From a virus (lineage: Duplodnaviria > Heunggongvirae > Uroviricota > Caudoviricetes), in the IMG/VR virus record IMGVR_UViG_2526164691_000033, positions 1-42,138 of that record: a stretch of 42,138 bases of DNA, one strand, 5' to 3'. The notes beneath the pieces are model-generated. The model was not told where the DNA came from and ran no database searches. It was given only the letters and a program-made list of their open reading frames with translations. A program made the position numbers and the translations under genes. Positions 3,099 through 3,732 of this stretch are shown piece after piece (the first letter of the stretch is position 1; every line of letters begins with the position of its first letter).

Positions 3099-3190
3099 AT
3101 TTGCGCATAAAGACCCCCCTTAGTAGGTGAGTCTATCATACACAATAAACCACATATGGTTTAAATAAACTCAGATAGCTCTTAACGAAA

Positions 3191-3205
3191 TTACCCAAAG
3201 GGTGA
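3191..3205. promoter_or_regulatory. imperfect copy of TTACC-N5-GGTAA operator motif (TTACCCAAAGGGTGA)
   Basis: One half-site mismatch; lies in the divergent holin/gtrA intergenic region. Confidence 0.3.
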
Positions 3206-3234
3206 TATATTTGTTTTTATTTTTTCTGGAAAAA

Positions 3235-3597
3235 GTGCTTCATCTGTTCACTAAATACATGTCAATCGGAGTGTTAAACACGCTCATACACTGGGTTGTG
3301 TTTGCTTTCTGTATTTACGTAATACATACAAATCAAGTACTTGCTAACTTTGCTGGTTTTGTCATAGCTGTATCGTTCAGTTTTTACGCTAACGCGAAAT
3401 TTACGTTCAATGCCTCTACTACTACGCTGAAATACATGCTTTACGTTGGATTCATAGGCACTATGAGCGCAGTTGTTGGCTGGGCTGCTGACATGTGCGG
3501 TCTGCCACCATTTGTTACTCTCGTCATCTTCTCCGCCATAAGCCTGGTGTGCGGTTTCGTCTATTCAAAGTTCATTGTCTTTAGGGATGCGAAATGA
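3235..3597 (+). CDS. gtrA: GtrA, bactoprenol-linked glucose flippase (O-antigen conversion)
   Basis: Translation [23 protein letters not shown]...[12 protein letters not shown] closely resembles enterobacterial/phage GtrA (YfdG) as recalled; probable GTG start at 3235. Confidence 0.75.
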
Positions 3598-3701
3598 AGA
3601 TATCTCTTGTAGTTCCTGTCTTCAATGAAGAAGAAGCGATACCAATTTTTTATAAAACGGTACGTGAATTCGAAGAATTGAAGTCATATAAAGTAATTTA
3701 A
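3594..3701 (+). pseudogene. gtrB: gtrB 5' fragment (bactoprenol glucosyltransferase truncated after about 32 native codons)
   Basis: ATGA overlap with gtrA stop; [32 protein letters not shown] matches the GtrB/YfdH N-terminus as recalled, then KVI-stop; full GtrB is about 300 aa. Confidence 0.75.
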
Positions 3702-3705
3702 TGTA

Positions 3706-3732
3706 AGAGAGGGATATTTCCCTCTCTTTTTT
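3706..3732 (+). terminator. rho-independent terminator between gtrB stub and tailspike gene
   Basis: 8-bp stem AGAGAGGG/CCCTCTCT, 6-nt loop, then TTTTT; sits between the two convergent stop codons. Confidence 0.5.

Follow-up and report, generated by a model that had tools for sequence, protein, structure and literature searches.

A gtrABC serotype-conversion cassette in a phiV10-like prophage of Escherichia coli O26, probably reduced by a single internal deletion to gtrA and the ends of gtrB and gtrC

One of the closest described systems to the locus analyzed here is the gtrA–gtrB–gtrI cassette of Shigella flexneri SfI. SfII, SfV, SfX and P22 also carry gtrABC cassettes. In the phiV10-like phages of the genus Uetakevirus, O-antigen modification is encoded in a slot flanked by the holin genes and the convergent tailspike gene. 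In phiV10, the slot is occupied by oac, an O-acetyltransferase gene convergent with the tailspike gene, whose product, according to the annotation of the phiV10 record, acetylates the host O-antigen and acts in superinfection immunity. In Enterobacter phage BUCT554, also a Uetakevirus, the same holin–tailspike slot contains an intact gtrA–gtrB–gtrC cassette. In the Gtr model, Und-P-glucose is the product of GtrB and is presumably flipped to the periplasm by GtrA, after which GtrC puts the glucose on a specific sugar of the O unit (PMC7685785).

The window, i.e. the whole stretch of DNA analyzed (42,138 nucleotides), is a complete-looking prophage with yfgI on one side and guaA on the other, in E. 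coli O26. It belongs to the genus Uetakevirus (epsilon15/phiV10-like): its structural genes are 98% identical to those of phiV10 over 9 kb, and both elements have the same order of modules, namely tailspike, modification slot, holins, endolysin, Rz and int. The cassette lies in the O-antigen-modification slot of the phiV10-like phages, with holin genes on one side and the convergent tailspike gene on the other; it is thus borne by a temperate phage and placed beside the tailspike/attachment region. The features of the locus are as follows.

3182–3211, plus strand: promoter-like site TTAACG-18 nt-TATATT with TG, upstream of gtrA, called by consensus match alone
3235–3597, plus strand: gtrA, intact, 120 aa, GTG start; PF04138 over its full length, homologous to K-12 YfdG
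3594–3701, plus strand: gtrB remnant, an ORF of 35 codons, of which codons 1–32 (3594–3689) are genuine gtrB by identity with K-12 yfdH
3686–3689, plus strand: putative deletion junction, ATAT microhomology common to gtrB (..GTCATATGAAGT..) and to the gtrC end (..CAGATATAAAGTAA)
3686–3696, plus strand: gtrC remnant, last 11 nt, (G)AT ATA AAG TAA, with the native stop at 3694–3696; identical to the gtrC 3' end of prophages L011, L016 and L010
3705–3734, no strand assigned: intrinsic terminator found by folding, with a 10-bp GC-rich stem, a 4-nt loop and a T-run on the plus strand; the same sequence lies 3' of intact gtrC
3734–6355, minus strand: tailspike gene, 873 aa, mosaic, convergent; Pfam Tail_spike_N and Beta_helix

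Only the first gene of the cassette is complete. GtrA, a ~120-aa membrane protein characterized by a GtrA/DPMS transmembrane domain, is encoded in full: the Pfam profile PF04138 (GtrA_DPMS_TM) is matched end to end (profile positions 1–117 of 117, E=1.6e-13), and the protein is 83% identical to YfdG of E. coli K-12; PGAP lists it as 'GtrA family protein' (WP_000902802.1). GtrB, which as a complete bactoprenol glucosyltransferase is about 305 aa long and contains a GT2 domain (PF00535), is reduced to 32 genuine codons, and a Pfam search for the GT2 domain gave no match in the remnant. Its ATG at 3594 overlaps the gtrA stop codon. Positions 3541–3689 of the window are identical to K-12 yfdG–yfdH at 149 of 149 nt, including all 96 nt of gtrB codons 1–32; this homology, whose extent is far above chance expectation, stops exactly after Y32, the first mismatch to yfdH being A3690. 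The K-V-I-stop that completes the 35-codon ORF (3690–3701) results from translating the gtrC end and the sequence 3' of it in a frame shifted by one base. As for GtrC, the product of the serotype-specific polytopic glucosyltransferase gene located 3' of gtrB, the ORF listing contains no gtrC ORF anywhere in the slot and only the last 11 nt of the gene remain.

The cassette is closed by a hairpin whose stem spans 3705–3728 and is followed by TTTTTTATT; the tailspike stop codon (3734) lies 5 nt from it. With a folding energy of -18.4 kcal/mol (z = -5.6 versus shuffles), a GC-rich stem and a T6 tract on the plus strand, it has the structure of a rho-independent terminator in the direction of the cassette; on the minus strand the hairpin is kept (-16.2 kcal/mol) and the tract is poor. 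The first-pass annotation had described this locus as a decayed gtrABC cassette in which gtrA is intact, gtrB is recognizable up to KSY and ends as a 35-codon ORF in KVI-stop, gtrC is missing, and a hairpin terminator and the convergent tailspike stop come right after the gtrB piece. Our results agree with this description, gtrB and gtrC falling short in domain content and length, and they add that KVI-stop derives from the junction and that a vestige of gtrC, 11 nt long, persists. The intact cassette that it had proposed to look for at this position in a relative is that of BUCT554.

The whole arrangement is present in 31 of 5,426 complete E. coli genomes, where RefSeq/PGAP labels the two genes 'GtrA family protein' and 'glycosyltransferase, incomplete; missing C-terminus', the gtrB piece being already marked as a partial pseudogene; the gene beyond it is labeled by RefSeq as a beta-helix tail protein. 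Among the matches listed for a 661-nt region, 26 of 30 complete E. coli genomes are 100% identical, including O26 strain RM10386 as well as 97-3250 and DEC9B, and 29 are at least 99% identical. The ATAT junction itself is identical in 34 complete genomes, in an IMG/VR prophage (L009) and in a metagenome contig (L014).

Elsewhere in the prophage, a tRNA-Arg gene (anticodon TCT) lies at 25740–25816 (plus strand), with the portal gene on one side and the terminase region on the other. Positions 6809–16195 find no megablast match in the otherwise near-identical prophage of strain 6629, and for this reason the segment appears to be a second variable module, upstream of the tailspike gene. It holds a Bro-N protein gene (7109–7834), small plus-strand ORFs and two large virion protein genes (9966–13355 and 13355–16102). 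Two overlapping plus-strand ORFs, of 108 and 170 aa, occupy 7958–8783 and may form a toxin–antitoxin-like accessory pair; the second, 170-aa ORF has a sub-threshold match to the Pfam YafO toxin family (E=9.5e-4, under the gathering score).

The first lead on the right side of the junction was a 47-nt match, of 98% identity, to strain FDN-9. There, the matching sequence closes an ORF (...ETDIK*) whose product matches the C-terminal part of SfI GtrI with 43% identity; the hairpin of the window recurs 3' of this ORF, and beyond it lies a tailspike gene in convergent orientation. Intact cassettes were recovered by exact-pattern scans with the terminator sequence. In prophage L011 (Escherichia sp. 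E1V33), int is followed by gtrA (120 aa), gtrB (306 aa, PF00535) and gtrC (506 aa), then by the terminator present in the window and a tailspike of the window type; the IMG/VR prophage L016 is organized in the same way, with a gtrB of 304 aa, also with PF00535, and a gtrC of 506 aa. Intact gtrA–gtrB–gtrC–terminator–tailspike units therefore exist in these two P22-like prophages. A third relative, L010, has at least 375 C-terminal gtrC residues followed by the terminator and tailspike, the contig end cutting off the remainder. The same terminator sequence lies 3' of gtrC in all three, and 3705–3734 of the window is the native gtrC/tailspike terminator. GtrC of L011 aligns with SfI GtrI along 93% of its length at 38% identity; since no Pfam family matched GtrC, it is this homology that identifies the protein. 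Note that BUCT554 was discarded as a reference for the breakpoint: the terminator 3' of its gtrC differs, and BUCT554 fixes the slot only.

The same GtrI-like cassette carries an internal deletion in two other P22-like elements, phage N7 (L007) and the FDN-9 prophage (L006, 5285–6047): gtrA codon ~20 is fused to gtrC residue ~288, so that the last ~219 gtrC codons are kept. This deletion, whose endpoints differ, is independent of the one in the window. In complete E. coli genomes, no intact gtrC was found, the matches being the FDN-9/FDN-24 remnants and the window-type junction. A search of a large protein database for a full-length close relative of the 171-aa gtrC remnant returned only fragments of 105–259 aa. 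Likewise, neither the window gtrA allele nor any E. coli Uetakevirus was found with an intact cassette, and in a search of IMG/VR and metagenomes for a pre-deletion ancestor through the window gtrA allele, both matches carry the same deletion.

Alignment with both parents places the breakpoint, which the first-pass annotation had proposed to locate against complete gtrABC clusters, at the ATAT of 3686–3689:

gtrB parent: ...AATTGAAGTCATATGAAGTGG...
gtrC-end parent: ...AATTGAAACAGATATAAAGTAATTTAATG...
window: ...AATTGAAGTCATATAAAGTAATTTAATG...

The last gtrB-specific base is C3685 and the first gtrC-specific base is A3690. The shared ATAT sits inside an imperfect 9-nt match, and AATTGAA occurs a few bases upstream in both parents. 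Compared to L011, the missing interval amounts to ~2338 nt and comprises gtrB codons 33–306 and the whole of gtrC except its last 11 nt.

The tailspike gene beyond the terminator is a mosaic. Its N-terminal part (~5872–6355) is of the phiV10/epsilon15 type, and 5872–6600 resembles the corresponding Uetakevirus region (72% identity to BUCT554). The receptor-binding beta-helix block (3768–5399, minus strand) shares 97–98% identity with tailspike genes of P22-like prophages; more specifically, it is 98% identical to positions 5001–6632 of L004, the P22-like prophage at argW in the O26:H11 strain 11368, and 3686–5399 is 97.4% identical to L010. In view of these identities, a receptor-binding module has moved between P22-like and phiV10-like prophages. 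The C-terminal tip (3734–3874) is conserved. Prophage L009, a Uetakevirus prophage, has an identical ATAT junction but another type of receptor-binding module, 92.6% identical to that of FDN-9 and ~64% identical to that of the window over 4743–5405.

Many O26 genomes carry both the phiV10-like and the argW P22-like prophage, with two to three matching places per genome, so that the co-resident prophages share one O26-type tailspike module. In the argW prophage of strain 11368, the gene downstream of the tailspike gene is an acyltransferase gene, with no gtr cassette.

We consider it highly probable that the locus is the remnant of a gtrABC serotype-conversion cassette of a phiV10-like prophage, produced by one deletion of ~2.3 kb at ATAT and inherited through tailspike exchange. 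In a single event, likely replication slippage or illegitimate recombination, codon 32 of gtrB would have become fused to the final 11 nt of a GtrI-like gtrC across a 4-nt microhomology (9 nt counting imperfect matches); neither the native gtrC/tailspike terminator nor the tailspike gene would have been affected. Both endpoints would lie within the cassette, because the junction partner of gtrB is the gtrC 3' end with its native terminator. The presence of the same junction in the window and in L009, next to differing receptor-binding modules, implies that the junction arose once and has since outlasted one or more swaps of the receptor-binding part of the tailspike with P22-like prophages. 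A separate, intra-cassette deletion is thus favored by (i) the gtrC end as junction partner, (ii) the other receptor-binding module of L009 and (iii) the independent deletion in N7 and FDN-9. The first-pass annotation had seen here a recombination junction at which a tailspike module replaced gtrB–gtrC. This holds insofar as the receptor-binding part of the tailspike has been exchanged (3768–5399, 98% identical to strain 11368); it does not hold for the junction itself, where the partner of gtrB is the gtrC end and no tailspike DNA is found.

The strongest competing explanation, which we regard as unlikely, is a one-step import: a P22-like block made of the gtrC 3' end, the terminator and the receptor-binding part of the tailspike gene would have entered a Uetakevirus prophage through an illegitimate join to gtrB codon 32 at ATAT on the left and a crossover in the tailspike gene near 5400 on the right, so that the resident gtrB, gtrC and tailspike module were all lost at once. 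Such an import predicts what is observed on the right side, namely a high-identity homology to P22-like prophages that is continuous from 5399 to exactly 3686 and halts at the junction. It also fits with the fact that intact copies of the GtrI-like gtrC were found only in P22-like prophages and that all Uetakevirus copies with the window gtrA allele carry the deletion; since every copy with this allele has it, in situ deletion and one-step import are inseparable by these copies. However, the import requires an illegitimate crossover that fell by chance within the last 11 nt of the donor gtrC. Furthermore, the same junction stands beside two receptor-binding modules, indicating that tailspike swaps spare it, and N7 and FDN-9 provide examples of spontaneous internal deletions of the same cassette. 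Finally, the left side speaks for the arrival of a whole gtrB. The gtrA gene is itself a mosaic, its first 306 nt (3235–3540, the 5' allele that carries CATCTGTTCACTAAATACATGTCAATCGGAGTG) being ~71% identical to K-12 yfdG and the remainder (3541–3597) 100% identical; this boundary at 3540/3541 indicates a probable past homologous exchange between the gtr cassettes of different prophages, and the switch to a sequence 100% identical to the gtrAB adjacent to intS in K-12 looks like a homologous left crossover that brought in gtrB as a whole.

What remains of the cassette would be unable to glucosylate the O-antigen, because the GtrB remnant has no GT2 domain and GtrC is gone. On the Gtr model, the earlier conclusion that seroconversion was lost and the flippase gene kept is thus a sound inference. 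The orphan gtrA may still be transcribed, since its ORF, its upstream region and the terminator are all kept. The promoter-like match at 3182–3211 lies in a region homologous to the BUCT554 holin–gtrA intergenic region; it is the sole such site in 2900–3900, where shuffled sequences have 2.1 on average, and hence is not significant by itself. No GATC site, the Dam/OxyR-type signature of phase variation, occurs upstream of gtrA in 3087–3234.

All 36 copies have an unbroken gtrA ORF and fall into three alleles represented by the window, L009 and L003. The L009 allele differs from that of the window by two substitutions, both nonsynonymous; at both sites the window departs from the residues common to the K-12 and L011 proteins (M and T), and BUCT554 GtrA shares only the first of these (M). 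The L003 allele (E. coli 7_15_5C, L003 6136–6501) shows 22 differences, all in the 3' half, the 5' 210 nt being identical. They are concentrated in a patch of ~90 nt (~3445–3535) and accompanied by an in-frame 3-nt insertion (YVGGFMG); the 3' part is closer to the K-12 allele, which part of the patch matches exactly, so that the patch looks like a recombination tract, resembling gene conversion from another gtrA. Outside this patch, divergence among copies is at most 0.6%. With two differing sites in L009, and the 22 of L003 in the recombination tract, divergence is too low for dN/dS to reveal selection.

Could the orphan gene nevertheless be kept by selection, for example by flipping Und-P-sugars made by another GT2 enzyme or by serving gtrB and gtrC located elsewhere? 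GtrA and GtrB have been reported to be interchangeable between cassettes, and the ORF is intact in every copy across three alleles, including the one with the in-frame insertion in its recombination patch, with the upstream region and terminator retained. At a divergence of at most 0.6% outside the patch, however, intactness is expected without selection. Moreover, both differences between the window and L009 are nonsynonymous, with the window departing from the residues shared by K-12 and L011, most carrier genomes have a single gtrA/gtrB-like place at megablast sensitivity, and N7 and FDN-9 have lost gtrA as well. Maintenance by selection therefore seems quite improbable, and the variant in which the surviving GtrA has a function of its own is the less likely reading; most likely, gtrA is a young orphan gene without function whose decay has not yet begun. 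As to the 35-codon ORF being a genuine conserved small gene and no gtrB fragment, the only point in favor is its ATG overlapping the gtrA stop as in real gtrB, and the idea is effectively refuted by the nucleotide identity of its codons 1–32 with the 5' end of the full-length K-12 yfdH, by its last three codons, which are out-of-frame gtrC and 3' flank, and by its occurrence solely together with the ATAT junction.

The locus is a degraded member of a well-known family, the pseudogene label had already been assigned automatically, and both the decay of prophage accessory modules and the shuffling of tailspike modules are ordinary phenomena, so that the significance of the case is mostly confined to annotation. 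More specifically, its 'GtrA family protein' does not make the phiV10-like prophage of STEC O26 a serotype-converting (glucosylating) element. A literature search found no paper describing this locus. What is added here is the junction at base level and the identity of the lost gtrC type as GtrI-like, together with a gtrC–terminator–tailspike unit common to two podovirus genera, whose modification half has decayed at least twice. The locus thereby offers base-resolved candidate examples of a phage accessory module lost by microhomology deletion and of tailspike receptor-binding modules shuffled between P22-like and phiV10-like prophages whose hosts belong to one serogroup; in this shuffling, the probable recombination arm is formed by the terminator together with the conserved 3' tip of the tailspike gene. 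It is conceivable, if rather doubtful, that the gtrC–terminator–tailspike block travels between Lederbergvirus and Uetakevirus, in either direction, as a 'recognize-and-modify' unit whose modification half is repeatedly deleted in O26-associated lineages and whose recognition half persists. On this reading, the two independent deletions, along with the failure to find an intact gtrC in complete E. coli genomes, would hint at selection against glucosylation of this O-antigen.

Compared to the described systems, the locus shares with SfI the gene order and the overlapping gtrA/gtrB start and stop, gtrA and the 5' end of gtrB being ~75–78% identical in DNA, and the lost gtrC was of a type homologous to gtrI, as judged from GtrC of L011 (38% over 93%). 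Unlike in SfI, only 32 codons of gtrB and 11 nt of gtrC are left, the carrier is a phiV10-like Uetakevirus rather than a P22-like or SfV-like phage, and the cassette has the holin and tailspike genes as neighbors; in the P22-like relatives with intact units, it sits between int and the tailspike gene. The gtrABC-like prophage remnant at intS in K-12 (yfdG–yfdH and a third ORF) is 100% identical to the window over 3541–3689, but there yfdH is full-length and followed by the third gene, and over the first 306 nt of gtrA the identity drops to ~71%. N7 and FDN-9 resemble the window in their gtrC type, terminator and conserved tailspike 3' end and in having suffered an internal deletion, the endpoints of which differ: gtrA is destroyed there, and the C-terminal 219 residues of gtrC are left. 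In phiV10, whose structural genes are 98% identical, an O-antigen-modifying gene occupies the same slot, convergent with the tailspike gene, and is a functional O-acetyltransferase gene with no gtr cassette. Finally, BUCT554, of the same genus, has the same succession in the same slot, holin, gtrABC and convergent tailspike, with ~77% homology from the holin gene into gtrB; its cassette is intact, and its gtrC, terminator and tailspike receptor-binding part differ from those that border the junction in the window.
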